From: Parcubacteria group bacterium Gr01-1014_8
GTDB lineage: Bacteria; Patescibacteriota; Minisyncoccia; Phycocordibacterales; UBA2100
DNA: 64,000 nt
Direction: 5' to 3'
NCBI GenBank assembly: GCA_007376385.1
Contig: VMGC01000001.1
Location: forward strand, 1-64,000
Shown: piece after piece, positions 689 to 56,939 of the stretch
How the letters are laid out: each line of letters starts with the position of its first letter
Position numbering within the stretch: the first letter of the stretch is position 1
Translations under genes and position numbers: made by a program
The notes under the pieces: model-generated
What the model saw: only the letters and a program-made list of their open reading frames with translations
Databases searched by the model: none
What the model was told of the DNA's origin: nothing

Positions 689-2155
689 ATGCAGCCCCTC
701 CCCGACGAATCGTTCGACAAGCCAGCCCTGATGTTCACGGCCAAATTCGTTTTGGGCGTCGCACTTTTAGTGAGCGTCGCGCACTGGGGTACCGCGTTCG
801 GAGCGGAAGCAGTCATTGCCGTCGCGTTTCGGGAAGTGCCGGATATCGAGCAGCAAATAGAGGAGGTGAAAGTATTGCGTGAGCTTCGTTCGTACGGCGA
901 AGTGCGCCTCTTGGAGAAAATGGAGGAATACAAGAGCACGCTTGCCTCCCGCGTCATCGGCAGCACATCCATTGATTCGCTGGTATCGGATGGCAAGTTT
1001 ATCGGTGCGGACCTCTCTGCAATGAAATTGTATTTATTCGAGGACGGACACGCGATAGCAGAGTACGACATCCAGTCAAAAGGAAAACGTGGAAGCCGTT
1101 GGGAAACGCCGACCGGCCTCTATGAAATTCAGACAAAAGAAGAAGACCATTTTTCATCTATCGGCGAAGTACATATGCCAAAAGCGATGCAGTTCTTCGG
1201 AAATTTTTTCATCCACGGCTGGCCATTCTATCCTGACGGCACTCCTGTCTCGGAAGGATATTCAGGGGGCTGCATCCGACTTTTGACTGACGACGCTACA
1301 GAGGTATTTGAATTCGCTGAGTACAGAACGCCGATTTTCGTGTGGGAAGATGATTCATCCGTAAACGCAGAGGGGAGCGCATCATCAACTGCTATTTCAC
1401 TCGGCGAAAAGGCTCTACCGAAAGTTTCCGCGAATGCATTCCTCGTTGCAGATATTAAAACCGGCGAAGTATACGCAGAACACAACGCGGACACAGTTCT
1501 GCCGATTGCATCCATATCAAAATTGATGACGGCGCTCGTTGCGAATGAAACAATTCATTACGACAGAAAATTGGCCGTGACAGCAGACGATAGAAAACAA
1601 ACGGAGGGGACGCCCGGCTCCATCCTATCCGGCGATGAATTCACCGTCGGCGATCTGATTTACGCGCTTCTCATGGAATCGAACAACTCTGTCGCCTACG
1701 CGCTTGCGAGATATAATGGTGCGAACAATTTCTTAGATTTGATGAATGAAAAAGCGCGCGCGATAGGAATGACGCAAACGAATTTCGACGACCCGTCCGG
1801 CATCTCCACAAATAATCGCGCAACAGTCAACGACTTGTTCGTCCTCACCAGATACATCTTCAACAGCCAATCTTTCATTCTGAATGTCAGCAAGGAGAAA
1901 GGAAAAACAATTCTCGCCGAAAGTGGACGAAAATATTCGCTTGGTAATTTCAATGTGTTCGCAGATAATCCTAAATTTCTAGGCGGAAAGACCGGCTACA
2001 CCGATGCGGCCCGCGAAACAATGACAACGGTGTGGGATGTATCCGTGGATGGCCAACCAGCGACCGTCGCCATCATCGTCCTTGGTTCGAGCGATAGAAA
2101 AAAAGATGTGGAAAAATTGCTCGCGTGGTTTAAAGCATCCGCAACAACCGAGTGA
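689..2155 (+). CDS. fusion protein: N-terminal L,D-transpeptidase (YkuD-like) + C-terminal serine-type D-Ala-D-Ala carboxypeptidase (PBP5/S11-like)
   Basis: N-terminal half: HGWPFYPDGTPVSEGYSGGCIRL, the YkuD His ... (S/T)xGC(I/V)R catalytic signature. C-terminal half: SISK (SxxK), SNN (SxN) and KTGYT (KTG) penicillin-binding motifs in canonical order. Hydrophobic N-terminal anchor. True start may be the internal Met near 731. Confidence 0.8.
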   Translation: MQPLPDESFDKPALMFTAKFVLGVALLVSVAHWGTAFGAEAVIAVAFREVPDIEQQIEEVKVLRELRSYGEVRLLEKMEEYKSTLASRVIGSTSIDSLVSDGKFIGADLSAMKLYLFEDGHAIAEYDIQSKGKRGSRWETPTGLYEIQTKEEDHFSSIGEVHMPKAMQFFGNFFIHGWPFYPDGTPVSEGYSGGCIRLLTDDATEVFEFAEYRTPIFVWEDDSSVNAEGSASSTAISLGEKALPKVSANAFLVADIKTGEVYAEHNADTVLPIASISKLMTALVANETIHYDRKLAVTADDRKQTEGTPGSILSGDEFTVGDLIYALLMESNNSVAYALARYNGANNFLDLMNEKARAIGMTQTNFDDPSGISTNNRATVNDLFVLTRYIFNSQSFILNVSKEKGKTILAESGRKYSLGNFNVFADNPKFLGGKTGYTDAARETMTTVWDVSVDGQPATVAIIVLGSSDRKKDVEKLLAWFKASATTE

Positions 2156-46612: not shown

Positions 46613-47752
46613 TCAACCAAGCGCCTCAATAGCAGGCAGAGTACCCTTGAGCAAGTATTCCAACATCGCTCCACCTCCAGTCGAAAGAAAACCCAAATTC
46701 TCTTGTTTTATGCCGGCACCCTCTATTGCTGCTATGGTATCTCCCCCACCTATCACAACTGATGCTCCATCCGCAAATCTTTTCGCCGTTAACGCCGCAA
46801 CAGCGTGTGTCCACGACGTGTAGCCGTCCTCATACAATCCCGTAGGCCCATTCCAGAGAATGAAATTAGCTTTCTCGATGTATGGAGCAATAAGCGCGAG
46901 AGAATCGGGTCCGATATCAACGATTTTGTCGCCATCCTCGACTTGTTCAGGTTTTTTTGTTTGCGCCTGACCATCTTCTCGTTCGACAACGACATCAACC
47001 GGGGCAAGAAAACCAGGATGACTCAAAACTTCTTTTTCGGGCAATTGCGCTGAAATCCGAGACCGCCCAACCGGCAAGCCTCGCGCCTTGAATACATCGT
47101 TGGCAAGCGCTCCGGTAATGAATACATGATCGTATGTCTGCAGAAGTAACTTGATGAGAGGAGCCTTCGTTTCAAATTTTGCCCCCCCGAGAATCGCAAA
47201 CGATGGTCTTGTCGGCGTGCGAGCCTTCCTCAGAACTTCCAATTCCTCTTCGACAAGAAGCCCCGCATATGAGGGCATGAATTTCGGAACGCTGACGAGC
47301 GACGCATGCACACGGTGGTCGACGGCAAACGAGTCGTTCACATATATGTCAGCAAGAGATGCAAGTTCCTTTGCAAGCGACTCGTCGTTCTTTTTTTCGC
47401 GCGGATCACGGCGAATATTCTCAAGAAGGAGCACGTCTCCTTCCTTCATCTCCGCGATCGCTTCGCGAGCCGCATTACCAACAATATCTGGAACATAAAA
47501 TAAAGAAAAATGTTTCTTCATTGCACGGGCAACCGGTGCCATCGAATCTTCAATATCATTGCCAATATGAGAAAGCAAGATGACTTTCGCACCTTTTTCC
47601 GAAAGGTATTGGATCGTCTGCCATCCGCGCTTTGCACGAAAAAGATTGGAGACCTCGCCCGCTGCATCAAGCGGAAGGTTAAGATCTGTGCGCACCAAAA
47701 CGCGCTTTCCTTTCAATTCGCCCTGAGGAATATCGTTGACGGTTTTCATCAT
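46613..47752 (-). CDS. pgk: phosphoglycerate kinase
   Basis: VLVRTDLNLP ... hinge and C-terminal GGGA(M/S)LEYL motifs. 379 aa. Confidence 0.95.
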   Translation of the reverse strand: MMKTVNDIPQGELKGKRVLVRTDLNLPLDAAGEVSNLFRAKRGWQTIQYLSEKGAKVILLSHIGNDIEDSMAPVARAMKKHFSLFYVPDIVGNAAREAIAEMKEGDVLLLENIRRDPREKKNDESLAKELASLADIYVNDSFAVDHRVHASLVSVPKFMPSYAGLLVEEELEVLRKARTPTRPSFAILGGAKFETKAPLIKLLLQTYDHVFITGALANDVFKARGLPVGRSRISAQLPEKEVLSHPGFLAPVDVVVEREDGQAQTKKPEQVEDGDKIVDIGPDSLALIAPYIEKANFILWNGPTGLYEDGYTSWTHAVAALTAKRFADGASVVIGGGDTIAAIEGAGIKQENLGFLSTGGGAMLEYLLKGTLPAIEALG

Positions 47753-48501
47753 GAATTTCCAACTGCTTGTAATAGATGCGCAAATTCTACCGCGTTGATG
47801 CTGGCGCGCCCCACAAGAAGTCCGTGAACATCACCATCTTGAAGCATCGCTCCGGCGTTCGTGGCATCAATGGAACCCCCGTAAAGAATTTTCATCTTAT
47901 GTCCCTCTTGCCCGTATGAATCCACGATGGTTTTTCTGATGAAAATCGACATTTCGTGCATGCTGCGCGGGTCCATTGTTTTATCCGTACCGATCGTCCA
48001 GAGCGGTTCGTACACAATGACCACTTTTCCCAATTTTATGGCAGGGACATCAGTGAACGCAACGCGGATCTGTTCGGCAATAAGCGGAAAATAATCGCCG
48101 CTTGCAGTTCTCTTGGTTTCCCCGACGCACAGAACCGGTATGAGACCGTTTGCAAGCGCAGCGCCGACTTTCTGTCTCGTATCGTCATTTGTTTCTCCTC
48201 GTGCCCGTCGTTCCGCATGCCCGATAAGTACGTACCCCGCTTTTGCATCACGCACTTGTTGTATCGAAATCTCTCCCGTATGTGCCCCGCCTTCCTCAAA
48301 ATGTGCGTGCTGAGCAGCAAAGAGAATACGCCGCGAGCGTGATAAACGCCTCAATTCTCGCAAAAAAAGAGACGGCGGAGCTACGACAAGGGATACATTG
48401 GCTTTTTCTGCGGATTTCTTGGTCGCTTCGAGCAGCAATTTTGCTTCGCGAAACGTCGGTGGGTTCATCTTCCAATTCGCGATCACCAGACACTTCGACA
48501 T
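47749..48501 (-). CDS. tpiA: triosephosphate isomerase
   Basis: MSKCLVIANWKMN ... IGHAERR ... GETxxTxxxG. 4-nt ATGA overlap with pgk. The ORF extends to 48612, but the canonical start is 48501. Confidence 0.9.
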   Translation of the reverse strand: MSKCLVIANWKMNPPTFREAKLLLEATKKSAEKANVSLVVAPPSLFLRELRRLSRSRRILFAAQHAHFEEGGAHTGEISIQQVRDAKAGYVLIGHAERRARGETNDDTRQKVGAALANGLIPVLCVGETKRTASGDYFPLIAEQIRVAFTDVPAIKLGKVVIVYEPLWTIGTDKTMDPRSMHEMSIFIRKTIVDSYGQEGHKMKILYGGSIDATNAGAMLQDGDVHGLLVGRASINAVEFAHLLQAVGNS

Positions 48502-48683
48502 GCGAAGGATTGTAGCATGCGACACTTCACTTACTTCGCTACGTGACATGAGTTCGAAAGGGGCCGGGAAAACTACAGTTTTCCCGTCGAGAAGAGCAGC
48601 GAGTCCGCACATGTGGCGGACGGGCGTTGAGAACCTTCGGTTCTCAATGTGAAATTCCGCAGGTAAATCCGTGGAATTTTACA

Positions 48684-49601
48684 TTATCCCCCGAAAAGTA
48701 TGGTATCCGATATTGTGCGTGTTTTTTGCTTCAAAAACTCAGCTACAGCTGTGAAGAGAATTGCCTGCACGTCCTCTGCACCTGCAGTAAGAGCGGACAA
48801 TTCTTTGTCAACGACCCCGTCTATTTCTGCTGCAAGAGAGCGCGCTGAAAAGTATTTCCGTATGAAAAAACGGTACCACGGAAGACGTACTCGAACTCTC
48901 TCCTCTGATGTCGCGGCTGCACCCACCACCTCTACCCGCACTGGGAACGAGAACGGGATAATAGCAAACAACGCGCCGCGACTGCGATATGTGATCTCAA
49001 ATCGGGATGCGGAGAGAGCGGCTTTCTCAAGCTGCGCGTCGTCGCCCGCAAGTTCTGCTGCAATGAGCGCATAGTACTGGCCAGTTGATAACTTGCCGCC
49101 ATCAATTTTTTCCTTCGCGCGGCCCCTCAATCCTTTCCAAAATTTCAAGATATCGCGTATGTCAGCATTGCCTTGTATCGCCGCCCGGACTTTTTTTCCG
49201 TCGATGGTTACGCTAAAACCGCCTATCGTTCCTCCGCCAATTTTATACTCGTCGCCTGAATCAGTGACCGTGATCGCCCCTTGCTCTACGAGCGTGTTCA
49301 CTACATCCCCTTCCGTCTCGACGATCGGGCCTGGCAGAGGAGACTCCGGGTTACTTTGTGAGTTTTCTTCAGTTTGCTCTTTCTGGTCGATCGGTGTCTC
49401 AGGCAGAGGTTCTTCGTCCGGATTTTGGTTCAGATTCTGTGTTGCACTCCCGCTTCCGGCGGGAACTTCGCTGGTAAGGTCGAGGATTTCTCCTTTTTTC
49501 AAAAAATATTGGTCATTGAACTGGTCCGCAGAAGCGACGCCTGCATTGAATATCAAAAAAAGAAGTAAAAAACAAAAAAATACCCGCATAAAATGCTGTA
49601 G
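48684..49601 (-). CDS. hypothetical secreted protein at the distal end of the pilus cluster
   Basis: Signal peptide MLQHFMRVFFCFLLLFLIFNAGVASA, acidic low-complexity linker, then a globular region. No named domain. Confidence 0.55.
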   Translation of the reverse strand, partial: LQHFMRVFFCFLLLFLIFNAGVASADQFNDQYFLKKGEILDLTSEVPAGSGSATQNLNQNPDEEPLPETPIDQKEQTEENSQSNPESPLPGPIVETEGDVVNTLVEQGAITVTDSGDEYKIGGGTIGGFSVTIDGKKVRAAIQGNADIRDILKFWKGLRGRAKEKIDGGKLSTGQYYALIAAELAGDDAQLEKAALSASRFEITYRSRGALFAIIPFSFPVRVEVVGAAATSEERVRVRLPWYRFFIRKYFSARSLAAEIDGVVDKELSALTAGAEDVQAILFTAVAEFLKQKTRTISDTILFGG

Positions 49602-49615
49602 CATGCGCGAAAATC

Positions 49616-51112
49616 CTATTGCTCTCTCCATAATACAAATTTGTAGTCGGCCGATGCAGATGGAGTAAAAGGCGGTGGTGCGAATGCGAGTATTCGATCG
49701 TAGTTGTCTATACGAAGGTTGTACCCGGAACAATACACGCCCGGGGAACCACAGAGCCATTTGGTGCCGACGCGTTTGTTGGAGATGACCGAGCCATTTG
49801 TCGTGAGTTGTGATTGCTGTACATATCCATCGTATGCCGAAGGTACTTGGTTCGAGCCCGACGTCGTGTAGTAGTTGCGGCCAAATAGCCCCCCTTGCGC
49901 GACAAAAATGCCACGGATCGTCATCTGGTCCGGCGAAACAAGCGGCACGAGAATAGAATCCTCAGCAATGACCGTGAGCCCGGTCGATCCATCTGCTGTC
50001 GCATAATTAACGTTGTTATTCAGAATAACACTCGGCGCGTACGCACCAGTATCTGCCGTAACAATTGTTATTTTTCCTGACACCGTTCCTTCTATCCATG
50101 TTTTTGCGCTGACAAAAATAACCGCGCAATCCGACGGCGGCGTAAATGTGCCGAGTGAAACTTGTGTGGAAATGATGTCGTAATTCATATACCACGTCGG
50201 CGAGTGCCCTCCGTTATACCCCCACACACCTGAAGTACCAGTAACGCGATAGATAGTGACAGTTCCGTTTGAATTGAACACAAGCCTGTATCCGCGCTGA
50301 TCAGAAGCAGCCACTGATGAATAGGTTCCTCCTTGTTGCACATTATCAACTCGCGTGGTTGTGCCGCTGAGCAGTATTCCATCGAGTTGCGCGTAGCCGC
50401 GAAGCGCGCTGAAGTTTGAGCCGATGCCTTCAAAACTTACCTGGGGAACGGGATAACTCCAGAGCGGACTTCCGGTCCCCGCGCCAAATACGCCCGCCGC
50501 ATTATTATTTGTCGGGGAACATCCGAAACTTGCACCACATATCCATGTCGAAACCGAACTTGTGACATCGGAATTATTTGTTCCGTCCATTCTCACGCCG
50601 CCGTTCGAATGATACGGACCCGTGATATTTCTGTCTGATCCCGCCCAGACATTTTGATTCACAATGTGTGAATACTCCGCGACTGAAGGTCGCATATAAC
50701 GCGCAATAAGTGTGCGTTTAAAGACCGGGTTTTGGTCAGCCCTGCCTTCCGATGCGATGTTTGCGTACTGCGGTACGCCGCAGGCAGTATTCAACGTTGT
50801 CGTAACTGCCGCTTCTCCTACCCGCCCACCCTCTGGATCTTCGACGACATACGTAACTGGCGTTTCAAGGCCGGCGCCGGATAGCATGACATTTGGCGTG
50901 TGCACAAGAAACCATCGATAATACTCAAGTCCTGCTTCTGCTATTTGAATTGCCTGTTCCCGTGCGAACAATGCGCGTCCGTACTTGGCCTGCATGAAGC
51001 TGTAGCTCGTTATTGTTCCCAAAATAAGCGCAAAAATACCCATGTATGCAACAACTAGAATGATGGTCACTCCTCGCGACGCACTCCCTTCGTGTTTCTT
51101 TTTTCTGTTCAT
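49616..51112 (-). CDS. PilX-like / large pilus-associated protein with N-terminal TM anchor
   Basis: MNRKKKHEGSASRGVTIILVVAYMGIFALILGTI resembles the PilX_N anchor. 498 aa extracellular body. Directly downstream of two prepilin-type genes. Confidence 0.6.
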   Translation of the reverse strand: MNRKKKHEGSASRGVTIILVVAYMGIFALILGTITSYSFMQAKYGRALFAREQAIQIAEAGLEYYRWFLVHTPNVMLSGAGLETPVTYVVEDPEGGRVGEAAVTTTLNTACGVPQYANIASEGRADQNPVFKRTLIARYMRPSVAEYSHIVNQNVWAGSDRNITGPYHSNGGVRMDGTNNSDVTSSVSTWICGASFGCSPTNNNAAGVFGAGTGSPLWSYPVPQVSFEGIGSNFSALRGYAQLDGILLSGTTTRVDNVQQGGTYSSVAASDQRGYRLVFNSNGTVTIYRVTGTSGVWGYNGGHSPTWYMNYDIISTQVSLGTFTPPSDCAVIFVSAKTWIEGTVSGKITIVTADTGAYAPSVILNNNVNYATADGSTGLTVIAEDSILVPLVSPDQMTIRGIFVAQGGLFGRNYYTTSGSNQVPSAYDGYVQQSQLTTNGSVISNKRVGTKWLCGSPGVYCSGYNLRIDNYDRILAFAPPPFTPSASADYKFVLWREQ

Positions 51113-51115
51113 AGT

Positions 51116-51700
51116 CTATTTCAAGTTCCTAAGCGCCGCGGTCGAGCGAAGTGTTAATTGGTTCGGCAACCGATTTGGATCAACGTTCACAATAACGTTC
51201 ATGGTAATGAAACGCACATACGCTATCTGAGCAAAATTTGTTATCTCTGCACCGTTCATATCGTAGTATTGGAATGTCGTTGTCGCTTGCTCGATGTTAC
51301 GAACTGTCTCAGAAATTACCGATGTCGTTTGGGCTGCACCGTACACAGGAGGATCACCCGTGGGGTCTGTTACGTCACGAAGCAATGAAATGCCTTGCAC
51401 ATAGTATCGCACTCTCTCAATAAGCGGATCTGAATCGATGTCAGCGTAAAACGTAACCTCCTGGGGGCCAACCGCGGCAACAGGATATGCGCCATTTGAC
51501 GCATAGGATATCTCTCGCATCGTTTTCACCATCTCTTCGATGCCGCGCTGCGCTGCATTTACAGCGCTTGCTTGTTCTATAACGTATGTATTCGTGCGAT
51601 AGAAGTAAAGTACCGATGAAACAATGGCGAGCATCGCGAACGTAAAGACAGTAATGGATACCAACACTTCAATAAATGTGATGCCGCGTGAGTAGTTCAT
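51116..51700 (-). CDS. type IV pseudopilin (prepilin-type N-terminal cleavage/methylation domain)
   Basis: MNYSRG|ITFIEVLVSITVFTFAMLAIV: a G|(F/I)T(L/F)IE class III signal with Glu at +5. Confidence 0.8.
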   Translation of the reverse strand: MNYSRGITFIEVLVSITVFTFAMLAIVSSVLYFYRTNTYVIEQASAVNAAQRGIEEMVKTMREISYASNGAYPVAAVGPQEVTFYADIDSDPLIERVRYYVQGISLLRDVTDPTGDPPVYGAAQTTSVISETVRNIEQATTTFQYYDMNGAEITNFAQIAYVRFITMNVIVNVDPNRLPNQLTLRSTAALRNLK

Positions 51701-51701
51701 A

Positions 51702-53906
51702 CTAATTTAATACGGGAGACAGCCGCGAGGTGCCTGAAACGTCGACGTCGGTTGCTGTGTACGGCTGGAATCCGGCAGCTGTTATGTCTATTGAATATGG
51801 GTTACCGCCGCCCACCGAACCACTCGAAAGTTCGATGAAAAAGGCCTGCCCGCAGGAGTCGGTGGTCATCGTGACGTTGTATCCGAGAGAGCGATATAAG
51901 CGCACTGTCGCGTTTGCTATGAGTCCGCCGTTGCCACGAACATCGACGAGCAGCGAGTTTGTCGTGTGCGGCGCAAGAATAAGTTTCGTTGTTGCATATT
52001 CATTCGGTGCAAGGCTCTCCGGCTGCGGCGCACACGAGGAAGCGATGTCATAACCCGTCGAAGCATCCACCGTTGTCGTGTACGTGTCCCATTCGAGATT
52101 GCCGATACCGACGCCTGCCGTCGGACCCGTAGAAAGGGTTGTCGTCGAATACTTATAGAATGTGCCTCCTGGGCCATTCCCTATTGATTTATTACCTTGA
52201 AGACCAAATGTAATGTTTGGAAGAGGAAGAGGTCCCACGTCATGTGTGACTTCCCACGAAAGAACTTCCGGCGTCTCGCTTTCGTTTGCCGTGCCAAGTG
52301 ACGCATGTAAAGAAACACCTGGGTACGTTGTCGTTGAAATACCCGAAATGTCTACCGGCGATAGGCTGAATCCGGAACTATTACCCGGCAGTTCGGAGTC
52401 CGGAATGAGCGAGCTGCCGTCACTGGAGTACAGACGATAGGCAATGTTTGTCTGCGCCGGTCTCGTATCGACAAAGCGGAGTTGCTTCCACCGCACCAGA
52501 TATTGCGGTGCGATGGCTATCGAGCGCGCTTCGCCCGGAGTTGAATATGGTCCGGGCGCACCGACCAATCGCAAAAGTCCTACAGCAACTTCTGTGTTCG
52601 TGGTGGTAGCAATTTGAGAAGCATCCGCAAACGTATCCGTCGTTGTTGATGTCTTTATTTGCTCGAATGTTTGTACATTTTTTATAGAAACCAGATCGAT
52701 AGAGAATGGAAACGAGGTCGTTTGGTTAAGAGCGACTGTCAGATGCCCTGGCGTCGGATTGGTAATTTCTGCCGTTGCATCGTATGTCTGCGAAGTTGAG
52801 TAACCACTTTTTGTGACCACAATCTTGTAGCCAGCGCTGGCTGGAGCTCCGATGATCGTAACAAGTCCATCATTATCGGAAAAAAGAAGCATGTTTACGA
52901 CCGGATTGGTCGTGGCATTGATGACGGTAACCTGTGCATTCGCGACTGGCGCAGATGCTGCGTCCAAGATTGAAAGAGCGAGAGTCCCGCCCGGTACTGC
53001 TTGTTCAATGCCTACCGGCGAGACTCGTGTCGTCAACGCGACTTTTCGCAACCCGCCATTGTGCGCAGACCATGAAACCTCTGTCTTAACCACTTTAAAG
53101 TCCGCTGGATTCGCATTCGTGTCGGCGGCGCCTGTACCGTCCTTCGGATCATCTCCATACAAAATTATGGTACGGCGAATATATGAGATGCCATTCAATG
53201 TTGCTGTCTCCGTCGCCACGATCGCGCCAGATGGAATTCCCCCAACCGTGCCAACAGAATCGTAGGGTAAGCTGCGAATGAATTCTTGCCGTTCGTTCGC
53301 AAGAGCTATCGCCCCCGCACGGGCCTTGTTATTCGTGACAACATCGACTGAAAGCTGAAACGCACCGGAGATACCGACAAATACGAGCATGAGAAGCGCC
53401 GTGCCAACGATGGTATCGATGAGCGTCACGCCGCGCGATTGGCGGTGTTCACGTCGTCTTGAATACATTTCTGGAATGGTTCTTGTTATCACATGTTTTA
53501 ACGAGTCAGTCGTCGGCATAAATACGCCTTTCGGAAGATATATCCGCCATTGTGAATACCCGGGAACCTCGTTCCATCCATGCATCGCAGGAATCTTTTC
53601 GGCCCCCCTGTGCTCTTCGTCCATATGTAAATATAGCAGCCCCGGTTTCTTCGGTGTGGCAGACTCCAAAAGACGATTGGTTTTTTCCATCATCAGAGGA
53701 AACATGCCCCTTCTCTGGAACTCCGGATAAACCATAGTTTGCTCGGAATAGTAATAGCCATCCAAAGAATCAAACTCGCGATATGCAACAGGTATATTGT
53801 CAGATTTTGTGCGCCAGTCGATTCGCCAACCATCTTTTGTATTGCTGATGATTTCTTTCAACTCTGGCAAAGGCTCTTTGCCCGGATGAATCGTCTCGTC
53901 GCTCAT
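51702..53906 (-). CDS. large prepilin-type protein with an about 146-aa GNAT-like N-terminal extension preceding the prepilin cleavage motif
   Basis: ...MYSRRREHRQSRG|VTLIDTIVGTALLMLVFVGI is a class III prepilin signal at residues about 147-175. Upstream VYPEFQRRGMFPLMMEKTNRLL resembles GNAT motif A (Q/R-x-x-G-x-G/A). No stop between. The ORF start lies 3 nt after the pilC stop. Confidence 0.65.
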   Translation of the reverse strand: MSDETIHPGKEPLPELKEIISNTKDGWRIDWRTKSDNIPVAYREFDSLDGYYYSEQTMVYPEFQRRGMFPLMMEKTNRLLESATPKKPGLLYLHMDEEHRGAEKIPAMHGWNEVPGYSQWRIYLPKGVFMPTTDSLKHVITRTIPEMYSRRREHRQSRGVTLIDTIVGTALLMLVFVGISGAFQLSVDVVTNNKARAGAIALANERQEFIRSLPYDSVGTVGGIPSGAIVATETATLNGISYIRRTIILYGDDPKDGTGAADTNANPADFKVVKTEVSWSAHNGGLRKVALTTRVSPVGIEQAVPGGTLALSILDAASAPVANAQVTVINATTNPVVNMLLFSDNDGLVTIIGAPASAGYKIVVTKSGYSTSQTYDATAEITNPTPGHLTVALNQTTSFPFSIDLVSIKNVQTFEQIKTSTTTDTFADASQIATTTNTEVAVGLLRLVGAPGPYSTPGEARSIAIAPQYLVRWKQLRFVDTRPAQTNIAYRLYSSDGSSLIPDSELPGNSSGFSLSPVDISGISTTTYPGVSLHASLGTANESETPEVLSWEVTHDVGPLPLPNITFGLQGNKSIGNGPGGTFYKYSTTTLSTGPTAGVGIGNLEWDTYTTTVDASTGYDIASSCAPQPESLAPNEYATTKLILAPHTTNSLLVDVRGNGGLIANATVRLYRSLGYNVTMTTDSCGQAFFIELSSGSVGGGNPYSIDITAAGFQPYTATDVDVSGTSRLSPVLN

Positions 53907-53908
53907 AT

Positions 53909-55126
53909 TTAGATGACTTCCGACAGTTGGTAGATAGGAGAGATCATCGAGACCGCGAAAAATCCGACTGCGCCGCCGATGAAAATCATCAGGAACGGCT
54001 CGATGATCGTCGACATATCTTTCGTCTTTCTATCGACCTCATCCTCATAATAGATGGCGAGACGCTTTAACATTTCCGTCAGTTGTCCTGTCTCTTCCCC
54101 GACCGACATCATCTCCCCCACAAATGCCGGATACATGTCCTCGCGCCGTGTAAATTCTGCGGAAAGGGGCTCTCCTTTTCCAACGGCCGCCTTTGCCTTC
54201 TGAACTATGTCCTTGAAGTAACCGTTCTGGATAACGTCACTCACGATATCGAGCGACGTTAAGAGGTCAACACCAGACGAGAGGAGCGATGCAAGCGTCC
54301 GCGAGGTACGTGCGGCATTCACTTCTCGAACTAATACCCCAATAAGGGGTACTTTCAAGAAAAACCAATCAGCAAAACGTTTTCCAACAACTGTATGAAC
54401 TGCAAAATAAATCGTGCCGACGAACAATACAACAAGCGCAAGCGCAAGCACCGTGTATTCCACAAGAAAATCACTGATAGCAATTATTGTCCTCGTCGAG
54501 GCCGGCAGATCTGCGCCCATTTCGGCGAATGTCGAGGCCAGCGTCGGTACGACTTTTATCATCATCAAGACGCCAATACCGACAATCGCAACAAGAACGA
54601 TCACTGGATAAATAAGCGCCCCGCGTATCTTCTTTTTGAGGTTGTACATCCTCTCCATCTGGTCGGCGATGACGGTGAGCGATTGAGGCAAGTCCCCCCC
54701 TTCTTCGCCAGCGCGAACCATCGCAATGAAAAGCTTCGAAAATATATACGGGAATTTTGCAAGCGCGGCATGCATCGCGTCCCCTCGCCGCACTTCGCTC
54801 GAGAGCTGCGAAATGACATTCGAGAGTTTTGGATTCCTCGTTTGGCGCTCCAGTACTGAAAGCGCTCGTGAGAGCGCAAGGCCTGCCGTGAGCATAGCGC
54901 CTAAATTTCTCGCAAACAGAATGCGTTCGTATTCCGTGACCGTAGAGATCTTCGCATTCCAGTAGGCGATACTGAGCCACTGATTCGCCCTGTCTTCATC
55001 CACAGAAATGATGCGCCCGCCTTCACGGCGCACGACGCTGTACAATTCGAAACGATCGCGCGCTTCTGCGACGCCCTTATAGACTTCGCCGTCCGGCTTT
55101 TCAGCAGTGTACGTAAACCGAGACAT
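53909..55126 (-). CDS. pilC: type IV pilus assembly platform protein PilC/GspF
   Basis: Two T2SSF repeats and three TM segments. 405 aa. Confidence 0.9.
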   Translation of the reverse strand: MSRFTYTAEKPDGEVYKGVAEARDRFELYSVVRREGGRIISVDEDRANQWLSIAYWNAKISTVTEYERILFARNLGAMLTAGLALSRALSVLERQTRNPKLSNVISQLSSEVRRGDAMHAALAKFPYIFSKLFIAMVRAGEEGGDLPQSLTVIADQMERMYNLKKKIRGALIYPVIVLVAIVGIGVLMMIKVVPTLASTFAEMGADLPASTRTIIAISDFLVEYTVLALALVVLFVGTIYFAVHTVVGKRFADWFFLKVPLIGVLVREVNAARTSRTLASLLSSGVDLLTSLDIVSDVIQNGYFKDIVQKAKAAVGKGEPLSAEFTRREDMYPAFVGEMMSVGEETGQLTEMLKRLAIYYEDEVDRKTKDMSTIIEPFLMIFIGGAVGFFAVSMISPIYQLSEVI

Positions 55127-55199: not shown

Positions 55200-56939
55200 T
55201 CACTCTGAGATCACGCGCAACACTTCTTCGATGGTAGTGATTCCCTGTACTGCTTTAAAAATACCGTCTTCCGCCATGGAGAGCATGCCTTCACTCCGTG
55301 CCTGTTTTTCAATGGCATCTCCTGTTGCATTTGCCATGACAAGGTCCTTGATGGTCAACGTAACTGGCAAGACTTCATAGATACCGATGCGCCCGTTGAA
55401 TCCTTGCGGGGTTTCAGTTGATCCTTTTGGTTTATAGAACGGCACTTTGTTCCACGTTGCCTCCTTTGCAACAACTTTTTCTTCTTTCAGGGCCTTGAGA
55501 ACCGCCCCCCCGTCAACAAATTTTTCTAATTGGTTCTGTTCATCGCGAGAAAGCTCGTATGGCTCATGTTGCGCCGTCAATTTTCGGACAAGCCGCTGCC
55601 CGATCACCACGCGCAGTGTCGAGACAAGCAGGAATGGCTCCACACCCATGTCGAGGAGCCTCGCTACTGCGCCAGCAGCAGAATTCGTGTGGAGCGTTGA
55701 GAGCACCAAGTGACCCGTAAGAGCAGCGTTTATGGCAAGCGACGCTGTTTCTTTATCTCGAATTTCACCCACCATGATAATGTCCGGGTCCTGACGCACC
55801 AGCGAGCGAAGCCCGGTCGCAAACGTGAATCCTATCTCTGGTCTCACCTGTGTTTGATTCACACGCGCCATCTGATACTCGATAGGATCTTCGACAGTGG
55901 AGATATTTACATCCGGCGTGTTGATGATATCGAGGAGCGTATAGAGTGTTGTCGATTTTCCGGCACCAGTAGGACCAGTCGTGAGTATCATGCCTGTCGT
56001 TTTTCGCATCGCATCATGCATCCGTTCAAGCCCTGTACCGTGAAATCCGATACTTTCCAACGTAAAGCCTGAGATAGAATCGCGAAGAAGTCGCATAACT
56101 ATCTTTTCACCGTAGTACGTGGGGAGGACTGAGACACGAAATGATATCTTCTCTCCCCCAGCTTCTGCTCCGAAGCGCCCATCTTGCGGCAAGCGATGTT
56201 CATCAAGCCGCATATTTGCGAGAACTTTGATGCGTGCAGTGATAGCCGCTGCGGCATGTTTTGGCAATTCCATCGCGTCGTGCAAGATCCCATCGATACG
56301 ATAACGAATAAGAAGCGTATTTTCCAATGGTTCAATATGGATATCTGACGCATTCTGTGCCCCCGCATGGCGTAATAACGTATCCACAATGCGAACGGCT
56401 GAAACGCCCTCGGCCATCTGCCTTAGATCAGCCTCTCCGACATCGCCTTTCTCTTTTTCGAGCGCTACAGTCTCTCTCTTAATAACGTCGCCAAGCGTAT
56501 CCTTGAGACCCTTCTGATACTGTTTGAGCGAGGATTTGACCGAAGCTGCATCCGTAAGACGAGGCAATATTTTTAAACGCGTCTTTTTCTTAATGAAGTC
56601 GATGGCCGCGAGATCGTCAGTGTCGAGCATCGCAACTTCGAGCTCGTCGCCTTTGTGACTGAAAGAGATGATGTTGTTGCGGCGTGCAACAGGCTCAGGG
56701 ATAAGTGCAAGCGTCTCGTACGGTATATTCGTGCCGACCAGCGAGACAAACGGAATACCGAGGATATATGCATAGGTACGGCGAAGCTCATCCTCGCCAA
56801 TAGAGCCCTTCCCTACAAGAATATCGCCGATCGTTTTGCCGCTTTCTTTCGCTTCTAACTCTGCCACGTCAAAATCCTTTTGTGAGACCAGGTTTGCGTC
56901 AGCCAAAAACGATTTCAAGTGTGTATCAGAAATGTACAT
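55200..56939 (-). CDS. pilB: type IV pilus assembly ATPase PilB/GspE
   Basis: N-terminal GSPII_E_N domain. Walker A GPTGAGKSTTLY, Asp box, Walker B, His box and tetracysteine-less C-terminal domain. 579 aa. Confidence 0.9.
   Translation of the reverse strand: MYISDTHLKSFLADANLVSQKDFDVAELEAKESGKTIGDILVGKGSIGEDELRRTYAYILGIPFVSLVGTNIPYETLALIPEPVARRNNIISFSHKGDELEVAMLDTDDLAAIDFIKKKTRLKILPRLTDAASVKSSLKQYQKGLKDTLGDVIKRETVALEKEKGDVGEADLRQMAEGVSAVRIVDTLLRHAGAQNASDIHIEPLENTLLIRYRIDGILHDAMELPKHAAAAITARIKVLANMRLDEHRLPQDGRFGAEAGGEKISFRVSVLPTYYGEKIVMRLLRDSISGFTLESIGFHGTGLERMHDAMRKTTGMILTTGPTGAGKSTTLYTLLDIINTPDVNISTVEDPIEYQMARVNQTQVRPEIGFTFATGLRSLVRQDPDIIMVGEIRDKETASLAINAALTGHLVLSTLHTNSAAGAVARLLDMGVEPFLLVSTLRVVIGQRLVRKLTAQHEPYELSRDEQNQLEKFVDGGAVLKALKEEKVVAKEATWNKVPFYKPKGSTETPQGFNGRIGIYEVLPVTLTIKDLVMANATGDAIEKQARSEGMLSMAEDGIFKAVQGITTIEEVLRVISE

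Follow-up and report, generated by a model that had tools for sequence, protein, structure and literature searches.

An in-frame fusion of a GNAT-fold domain to a modular type IV prepilin in a Parcubacteria pilus operon

The open reading frame (ORF) at positions 51702..53906 on the minus strand of the 64-kb window analysed here (positions 1 to 64,000 of contig VMGC01000001.1 from Parcubacteria group bacterium Gr01-1014_8) lies in a type IV pilus gene cluster and carries a prepilin signal that starts only at residue 147 of the encoded protein. This arrangement raises the questions of what the region in front of the signal is, how it came to be joined to a pilin and how a prepilin would still be made from such a gene. 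The ORF is uninterrupted over 734 codons, starts with ATG and encodes 734 aa; the NCBI entry for exactly this protein reads 'hypothetical protein G01um10148_49 [Parcubacteria group bacterium Gr01-1014_8]'. A previous inspection of the DNA without database searches (hereafter the sequence-only reading) had pointed out the ORF without giving its strand, and it exists at these coordinates. On balance, we consider it probable that the ORF arose by in-frame fusion of two neighbouring genes, that it gives rise to two products and that the fusion is near-neutral. In the following, the window copy is referred to as W and its relatives as K (L001/P0002, from a Kaiserbacteria metagenome-assembled genome), S (L003/P0003), P4 (L089/P0004) and P5 (L090/P0005).

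The region in front of the prepilin signal

Residues 1-146 (53469..53906) were described as free of stops in the sequence-only reading, and this openness is unlikely to be accidental: the probability of 146 open codons by chance is approximately 1.5e-4, with base composition and 20,000 shuffles in agreement, and the other five frames over the same stretch contain 3-7 stops each. The codon-usage score of this region is +0.083 in the annotated frame and negative in the other five. The 24 training genes of the window score between 0.059 and 0.262, 23 of them with at least 0.116.

For residues 1-146 of W, neither Pfam nor NCBIfam yielded a match, with E<=10 as the limit. This part of the protein is homologous to its counterpart in K (phmmer E 4e-9), and the K protein P0002, which has 748 aa, the same fused architecture and the annotation 'GNAT family N-acetyltransferase', scores above the Pfam cut-offs for Acetyltransf_1 (28.1 vs 20.7 bits) and Acetyltransf_7 in this region. 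By themselves, the 146 aa returned nothing in a word-index homology search, and a profile of three sequences at first recovered P0121 only; when 1.84 billion representatives were searched exhaustively by HMMER, the 3-sequence profile yielded a GNAT-like family of 43 proteins. Almost all of them (42 of 43) are 105-182 aa long, the remaining one having 307 aa; two stretches of this protein, P0157, match the family profile, so that its GNAT-like domain may have been duplicated in tandem. GNAT models of Pfam (Acetyltransf_1, _7 or _10) are matched by 31 of 41 family members, the family consensus comprises an R-G-x-G-x-G and a G-W motif, and with the hidden Markov model (HMM) of the family, the window copy reaches 98.6 bits (E 1.4e-28).

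The structure of residues 1-146 was predicted by AlphaFold2 from a 41-sequence alignment, with a mean predicted local distance difference test score (pLDDT) of 91.2 and a predicted template modelling score (pTM) of 0.81; this run replaced an initial one with three sequences, which had given a pLDDT of 58.7 and weak fold matches. The elements of the model follow each other as four strands, helix, strand, helix, two strands and a C-terminal helix (residues 133-143). At E<=1e-3, a Foldseek search against the PDB produced 84 matches. The 50 listed ones, RimI, NatD and SpeG among them, all have the GNAT fold, with TM-scores of approximately 0.5 when normalised to the query. A toxin-type GNAT (TacT-like) was considered and rejected: the only sign of it was a generic fold match, ranked 50th, and none of the neighbouring genes was noted as antitoxin-like. 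The window domain thus shares the strand-helix order and the fold of small single-domain GNATs (Acetyltransf_1, _7 and _10; RimI, NatD, SpeG), and differs from them in that the model has no helices before the strands, motif A is degenerate and a Pfam match is lacking.

The sequence-only reading had based its assignment to GNAT on the acetyl-CoA motif A. The assignment to the family and the fold holds by HMM, AlphaFold2 and Foldseek, but the motif itself fits only in part: according to the family alignment, the window copy reads Q64-R-R-G-M-F69 (53700..53717), in which the last G/A of Q/R-x-x-G-x-G/A is missing. Among the relatives, the motif is kept in K (R-E-K-G-I-G), reads N-R-Q-G-R-R in S and is also degenerate in the copy of locus L110. 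In addition, the usual Tyr four residues before the G-W motif is replaced by Pro in the window copy. Judged by these residues, the catalytic competence of the window copy is doubtful. Codon usage, family membership and the predicted model together argue that residues 1-146 are a real, foldable coding region with a GNAT fold.

The prepilin signal, the pilin and the internal start codon

The prepilin signal that the sequence-only reading had placed at residues 147-175 or so was recovered. It consists of the leader MYSRRREHRQSRG (residues 147-159, Met147 to Gly-1; 53430..53468, with its start codon ATG at 53466..53468) and the hydrophobic alpha1N segment VTLIDTIVGTALLMLVFVGISGAF (residues 160-183, with Val+1 and Asp+5; 53358..53429). 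The latter is the sole hydrophobic segment of the 734-aa protein, Kyte-Doolittle averages exceeding 1.6 only for sliding windows that start at residues 158-173. The 13-residue leader is basic, with five K/R and one D/E, and ends in Gly directly before the hydrophobic stretch (...RQSRG159/V160TLID; here and below, a slash marks the cleavage site). The residue at +5 is Asp rather than Glu, and the alpha1N segment is invariant between W and K. Gly-1 was found in 68 of 68 homologous loci with a locatable signal motif (85 loci examined), and the distant homologues of the same pilin family have the canonical signal G/F[ST]L[IV]E. Within the close clade, Val, Ala, Ser or Met occupies +1 and Asp occupies +5 (G/VTLID; 53415..53429 in the window) instead of Phe+1 and Glu+5. 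The 734-aa protein does not match N_methyl (PF07963 / IPR012902) at E<=1, in contrast to the neighbouring 194-aa pilin, which does; the Pfam model probably misses these pilins because Val+1 and Asp+5 deviate from F/M and E.

A search of 5.8 billion proteins returned 610 homologues of the pilin. Among the 120 homologues listed, nearly all have 560-600 aa and a few up to 642, with a query coverage of 75-83%, and they therefore start at a short leader, as for example in MIMNRENERG/VTLIDT and MIRDRERG/VTLIDT. The same holds for the window protein if it is counted from ATG 53468, where the signal lies behind 13 aa, compared to 159 aa from ATG 53906. Judged by the canonical signal of its more distant members, the family consists of bona fide type IV pilins, the close members of which have Val+1 and Asp+5.

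The mature pilin predicted from the homologues comprises residues 160-734 (51705..53429; stop codon 51702..51704) and is 71-72% identical to its closest relatives. At 575 aa, it is considerably larger than classical pilins of approximately 150 aa, and it carries a CarboxypepD_reg (PF13620) beta-sandwich module at residues 312-385 (52752..52973; Pfam 1.2e-10, 42 bits vs a cut-off of 32.3). By its domain composition, the pilin part belongs to the modular type IV pilins, i.e. a pilin module with an extra domain. The combination of IPR012902 and PF13620 ranks in the top 15 modular-pilin architectures by frequency, with several representatives in the candidate phyla radiation (CPR) (PMC8179133), and large minor pilins of Patescibacteria with accessory domains have been proposed as tip or host-binding proteins (PMC11623550). 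By analogy to the large PilX pilins of TM7x (PMC11623550), a role of the window pilin at the tip or as an adhesin appears likely. Residues 147-734 resemble known modular pilins, e.g. PilB of Streptococcus sanguinis, in having an N-terminal class III-type signal followed by large modules. In these pilins, however, the extra module is C-terminal, extracytoplasmic and kept on the mature pilin, whereas the module added in the window ORF is N-terminal to the signal and would stay cytoplasmic and be removed on processing.

The leader of W aligns with the Met-initiated leaders of the non-fused relatives S, P4 and P5 (MIMNRENERG, MIRDRERG and MAHERERG), and Met147 is therefore taken as the ancestral pilin start. 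An internal start before the leader, which the sequence-only reading had advised to look for, is thus present as ATG 53468; it is A-rich and unstructured and has no Shine-Dalgarno sequence. The lack of the latter neither helps nor hurts because the genome is poor in such sequences, the duplex energies of window starts being mostly near the mean of random positions (-2.4 kcal/mol). What distinguishes gene starts in the window is a low GC content, together with A-richness and a weak local structure. True starts have an upstream GC of 0.41 and a local minimum free energy (MFE) of -8.9 kcal/mol on average, compared to 0.54 and -13.4 kcal/mol for 173 internal in-frame ATGs. In the 22 nt upstream of ATG 53468, GC is 0.36 and A is 0.50, and the MFE over -30..+30 amounts to -3.3 kcal/mol; only 0.6% of the 173 internal controls are as unstructured and 1.2% as A-rich. 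The mean MFE of 133 prepilin-like signal starts in the fetched pilus loci is -9.8. The context of ATG 53468 resembles that of a start codon, and an ordinary prepilin is probably still initiated there in W.

The pilC-pilin junction in related genomes and the operon

The five pilins W, K, S, P4 and P5 form a star-like group with approximately 70-72% identity, in which S and P4 are sisters (81.6%); for PilC, the identity between W, K, S and P4 amounts to 80-87%. The GNAT parts, in contrast, share only 22-30% between relatives (30% for W and K, the pilins of which are 72% identical). The same in-frame fusion is present in K, both on the NCBI contig and on a Logan contig. In S, the GNAT-like gene is a separate one: it begins 7 nt past the pilC stop and encodes P0121 (155 aa, 1361..1828), with which the pilin, starting at 1812, overlaps by 17 nt in a different frame. 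A further unfused GNAT-like gene, encoding P0132, lies between the 3' end of pilC and a pilin start (MIHGEIRG/ATLVDT) in L110:1-729; the pilin frame of this locus is interrupted after 20 codons by a stop close to where the contig ends, so that either the pilin is a pseudogene or the contig end is poor. A GNAT-like gene is thus found at the pilC-pilin junction of four related loci (W, K, S and L110), two of which are fused. In W, as in K and S, its ATG lies 2-7 nt past the pilC stop, and the protein starts with MS[DE] or MKE.

The two fused genes differ in the structure of their junctions. The GNAT tail P[ED]Y.EYL, which is present in K, P0122 and P0123, is absent in W, where the GNAT part runs into the leader with its Met; in K, the tail is kept (...PEYEEYL) and followed by VRSGARG/VTLID without a Met. 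For the window, a separate ENA assembly record has a contig with the same 4205 nt at 0 mismatches, and the junction contains no homopolymer run beyond AAA. Since W is reproduced in this record and K on both the NCBI and the Logan contig, an assembly frameshift is very unlikely.

Elsewhere, the junction is occupied differently. P4 and P5 have an unrelated gene on the opposite strand (conserved, 111-aa, in L089 and L090), and among 80 kept loci of a GTDB scan, in which the pilin usually begins 25-130 nt past pilC, the GNAT-like gene was found once, namely on the S contig again. The family HMM found no further match in approximately 0.97 Mb of fetched loci, none of 19 loci from a metagenome scan matched the N-terminal region of the fused protein (residues below 130), and no further fused form was found among approximately 100 other pilus loci or the 43 family representatives. 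To the question of the sequence-only reading whether the extension is always fused, the answer is therefore no: it is separate in S and L110 and absent from approximately 100 other pilus loci.

Other cargo observed at the junction includes a CPDase/2H phosphoesterase (L045, L048), DUF3800 (L038), a treble-clef zinc-finger protein (L056), MscS (L070) and, confirmed by Pfam, DUF6197 (L012). The junction ORFs of L010, L011, L015 and L017 (118-146 aa) show by eye a C-terminal pattern like that of the DUF6197 protein of L012. Judged by these gene contents, the pilC-pilin junction of the conserved Parcubacteria pilus operon looks like an insertion hot spot and, because unrelated genes sit there elsewhere, the GNAT-like gene is regarded as one of several cargo genes at a permissive junction. 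The family also occurs in other operons, e.g. between grpE and dnaK with an 8-nt overlap with grpE (L111:4001-4450), or directly after a PHA_gran_rgn gene (L087:1115-1540; L088:436-921) beside a transporter-like membrane protein, and in its genomic distribution it behaves like an operon hitch-hiker. In a neighbour-joining tree of the family, W and K group with the non-pilus proteins P0122-P0125, and S with P0132. Its branches are too long to decide between one and several insertions, or between one and two fusions.

In the window, the genes of the cluster all lie on the minus strand in the order pilB, pilC, fused ORF and two more pilin-like genes. The first gene encodes a pilB-type assembly ATPase (55200..56939; Pfam T2SSE 1.3e-119, plus MshEN) and is separated by 73 nt from that of the platform protein PilC (53909..55126; Pfam T2SSF 3.7e-61). 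The gaps from the pilC stop through the third pilin-like gene are 1-3 nt. The close proximity of the fused ORF to pilC was thus correctly noticed in the sequence-only reading, but 2 nt rather than 3 nt lie between the pilC stop and the ATG. A minor pilin of 194 aa (51116..51700; MNYSRG/ITFIEVLV; N_methyl 3.7e-5, with weak NCBIfam matches to GspI, ComGE and PilV) begins 1 nt past the stop of the fused ORF. Next comes a pilin-like protein of 498 aa (49616..51112; PilX_N is matched very weakly, E 0.15), the position of which is taken by a protein of 480-508 aa in L001 and L003. The synteny of the pilus cluster is kept in L001, L003 and L089. No ORF with a plausible peptidase-A24 GxGDxK motif, as expected for a prepilin peptidase, was found in the 64-kb window; the lone match to this motif lies in an ORF that overlaps a 910-aa gene and was judged not to be a peptidase.

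Some side observations were made on the neighbouring genes. A 358-aa ORF (48684..49760, minus strand) shares 145 nt with the 498-aa gene upstream of it and has a signal-peptide-like segment that begins approximately 60-70 residues in. The TIM ORF (47749..48612, minus strand) has 287 aa and matches Pfam only from residue 42, and its K orthologue has 250 aa. The longest-ORF starts of both are probably too far upstream. In K, an additional 105-aa gene without a Pfam match (L001:6410-6727) lies between pilB and pilC; it is absent from the window.

Origin and fate of the fusion

We propose that, in one Kaiserbacteria-like clade, a stand-alone GNAT-fold gene was inserted between pilC and the gene of the large minor pilin with PF13620. 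In the ancestral state, which would still be seen in the close relative S, the 3' end of the GNAT gene overlapped the pilin start in a different frame. An indel near this 3' end in the genome of the window would then have removed the tail and moved the GNAT gene into the frame of the pilin; as the GNAT gene has no stop of its own, the annotated ORF extends from ATG 53906 as far as the stop codon of the pilin. This arrangement would give two products, namely an ordinary prepilin with a canonical 13-residue basic leader from the retained ATG 53468, and a 734-aa read-through product from ATG 53906, directly after pilC.

Prepilins are targeted through SRP (signal recognition particle) and Sec, their leader stays cytoplasmic according to the positive-inside rule, and cleavage by prepilin peptidase follows Gly-1 and takes place at the cytoplasmic face (PMC4471445, PMC10191384). 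Because the single transmembrane segment is preceded by five Arg, the GNAT domain is predicted to stay inside. The read-through product would thus be inserted N-in, with the GNAT domain in the cytoplasm and a linker of approximately 16 residues past the last predicted helix (133-143), and cleavage between Gly159 and Val160 would leave the mature pilin normal and set the GNAT-like protein free. As a self-resolving fusion of this kind would be nearly neutral, we suggest this as the reason for its persistence in two lineages; that a third has kept the two genes apart is in line with it.

Several points weigh against this proposal. The use of either start is read from sequence context, and the internal candidates in K are weaker than that of W: TTG167 is structured (-18.0 kcal/mol), and ATG155 (-9.2 kcal/mol) would give a 20-aa acidic leader. 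In K, the pilin may therefore depend on the fused form, which would favour an obligate precursor. Furthermore, the fused state has outlasted the divergence of W and K (72% for the pilin, 30% for the GNAT part) and could thus be selected rather than neutral.

If the pilin were made solely as the 734-aa fusion, prepilin peptidase would remove a 159-residue 'leader' containing a folded GNAT domain and release the latter at the membrane beside the pilus machinery, and the arrangement would be under selection for 1:1 co-delivery or for an action of the GNAT domain on the pilin or the machinery. The frame that has stayed open across many indels in two diverged genomes, the lack of a convincing internal start in K and the GNAT-like gene at the same junction of four related loci speak for such an obligate precursor, and both the topology, which fits cytoplasmic cleavage (PMC4471445, PMC10191384), and the basic linker of approximately 16 residues between the folded domain and Gly159 are compatible with it. 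On the other hand, the context of ATG 53468 is more start-like than that of 99% of internal ATGs, the closest non-fused relative S makes two separate proteins, and in the sister lineages P4 and P5 the position of the GNAT gene is taken by an unrelated gene on the minus strand. The copies of W, S and L110 have a degenerate motif A, the family also resides in unrelated operons, and neither the other pilus loci nor the family representatives provided a further fused form. We give this explanation a small but appreciable chance; for a dedicated, enzyme-like prepilin leader, as envisaged in the sequence-only reading, we found no evidence, given the separate gene in S and the retained ancestral ATG. 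A slim chance is assigned to a functional variant, a self-resolving polyprotein in which the peptidase accepts the 159-residue leader and the GNAT-like protein, released where pilins mature, acts on the pilus system. It might, for example, acylate the N-termini of new pilins or components of the machinery, or bind them as a pseudo-enzyme. The recurrence at the junction of four loci, twice as a fusion, would then reflect a functional partnership.

Conversely, the GNAT part of W might be a decaying remnant without function, with the pilin from ATG 53468 being all that matters and read-through being rare or its product degraded. This would explain the missing Pfam and NCBIfam matches, the motif A QRRGMF and the Pro in place of the Tyr before G-W, the codon-usage score at the low end of the window genes and the GNAT identity of 22-30% compared to approximately 72% for the pilin and approximately 82% for PilC. 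A remnant would, however, be expected to gather stops or frameshifts, and the 146-codon frame is open against a chance of approximately 1.5e-4, its ATG position after the pilC stop and its MS[DE]/MKE N-terminus correspond to those of K and S, and the encoded sequence scores 98.6 bits with the family HMM and is predicted to fold compactly (pLDDT 91). The probability of this explanation is low. A mis-called start with non-coding DNA upstream, or an assembly frameshift joining two genes, is very improbable and largely refuted. The sequence-only reading had considered the extension an artefact of ORF calling in case homologues start with a short leader and the upstream 440 nt show no signal of codon usage or conservation. 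Approximately 600 homologues with a short leader do exist, including nearly all of those listed, and the first word-index search with the 146 aa was empty; the upstream 440 nt, however, carry both signals and thus are no ORF-calling artefact. They encode a member of a protein family with the best coding score of the six frames, and the identical 4205 nt in the separate ENA record, the junction without a homopolymer beyond AAA and the fusion of K on two contigs speak against a misassembly. We therefore return to the collapse of two neighbouring genes: the fusion is most likely a by-product of two overlapping genes collapsing into one and not a new maturation mechanism.

The sequence-only reading had called a folded, enzyme-like domain ahead of a prepilin signal highly atypical, and our literature searches for long prepilin leaders, N-terminal extensions and GNAT-pilin fusions likewise found no precedent. 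The InterPro survey of modular pilins (PMC8179133) would miss such fusions because it sought the IPR012902 motif only at the N-terminus. Reported leaders comprise 6-26 aa, and up to approximately 30 aa in type IVb pilins (PMC4471445, PMC10191384). The leader of the window protein resembles those of long-leader prepilins (type IVb, Flp1, PilE of S. sanguinis; 6-26/30 aa) in being hydrophilic, basic and Gly-ending, in preceding approximately 21 hydrophobic residues with an acidic +5, and in its expected cytoplasmic location and removal by the peptidase (PMC4471445). It differs from them in that, counted from ATG 53906, it has 159 aa with a folded domain and is roughly six times as long as the maximum of 26 aa in PMC4471445; counted from the internal ATG, its 13 aa are ordinary.

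With the 17-nt-overlap state in a relative and the fused state in two genomes, the locus resembles Rosetta-stone-type fusions of adjacent or overlapping genes by stop loss. In contrast to other gene fusions, the downstream partner is membrane-inserted and processed, so that the cleavage site could undo the fusion post-translationally. We know of no described stop-loss gene fusion with a prepilin. To our knowledge, class III signal peptides are the sole bacterial signal peptides cut on the cytoplasmic side, and anything fused ahead of them would therefore stay cytoplasmic and can, in principle, be clipped off.

The locus and that of K illustrate how genes that overlap in the dense operons of ultrasmall CPR bacteria can collapse into fusions. 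The annotations of the two fused proteins as 'GNAT family N-acetyltransferase' (P0002, 748 aa) and 'hypothetical protein' (window) mask a conserved, probably tip-located modular minor pilin. Together with its Kaiserbacteria counterpart, the window locus provides a natural test case for the limits of leader length and leader folding that SRP, the Sec translocon and prepilin peptidase can accommodate. If the fusion were functional, it would represent a new way to couple a cytoplasmic factor to pilin maturation.

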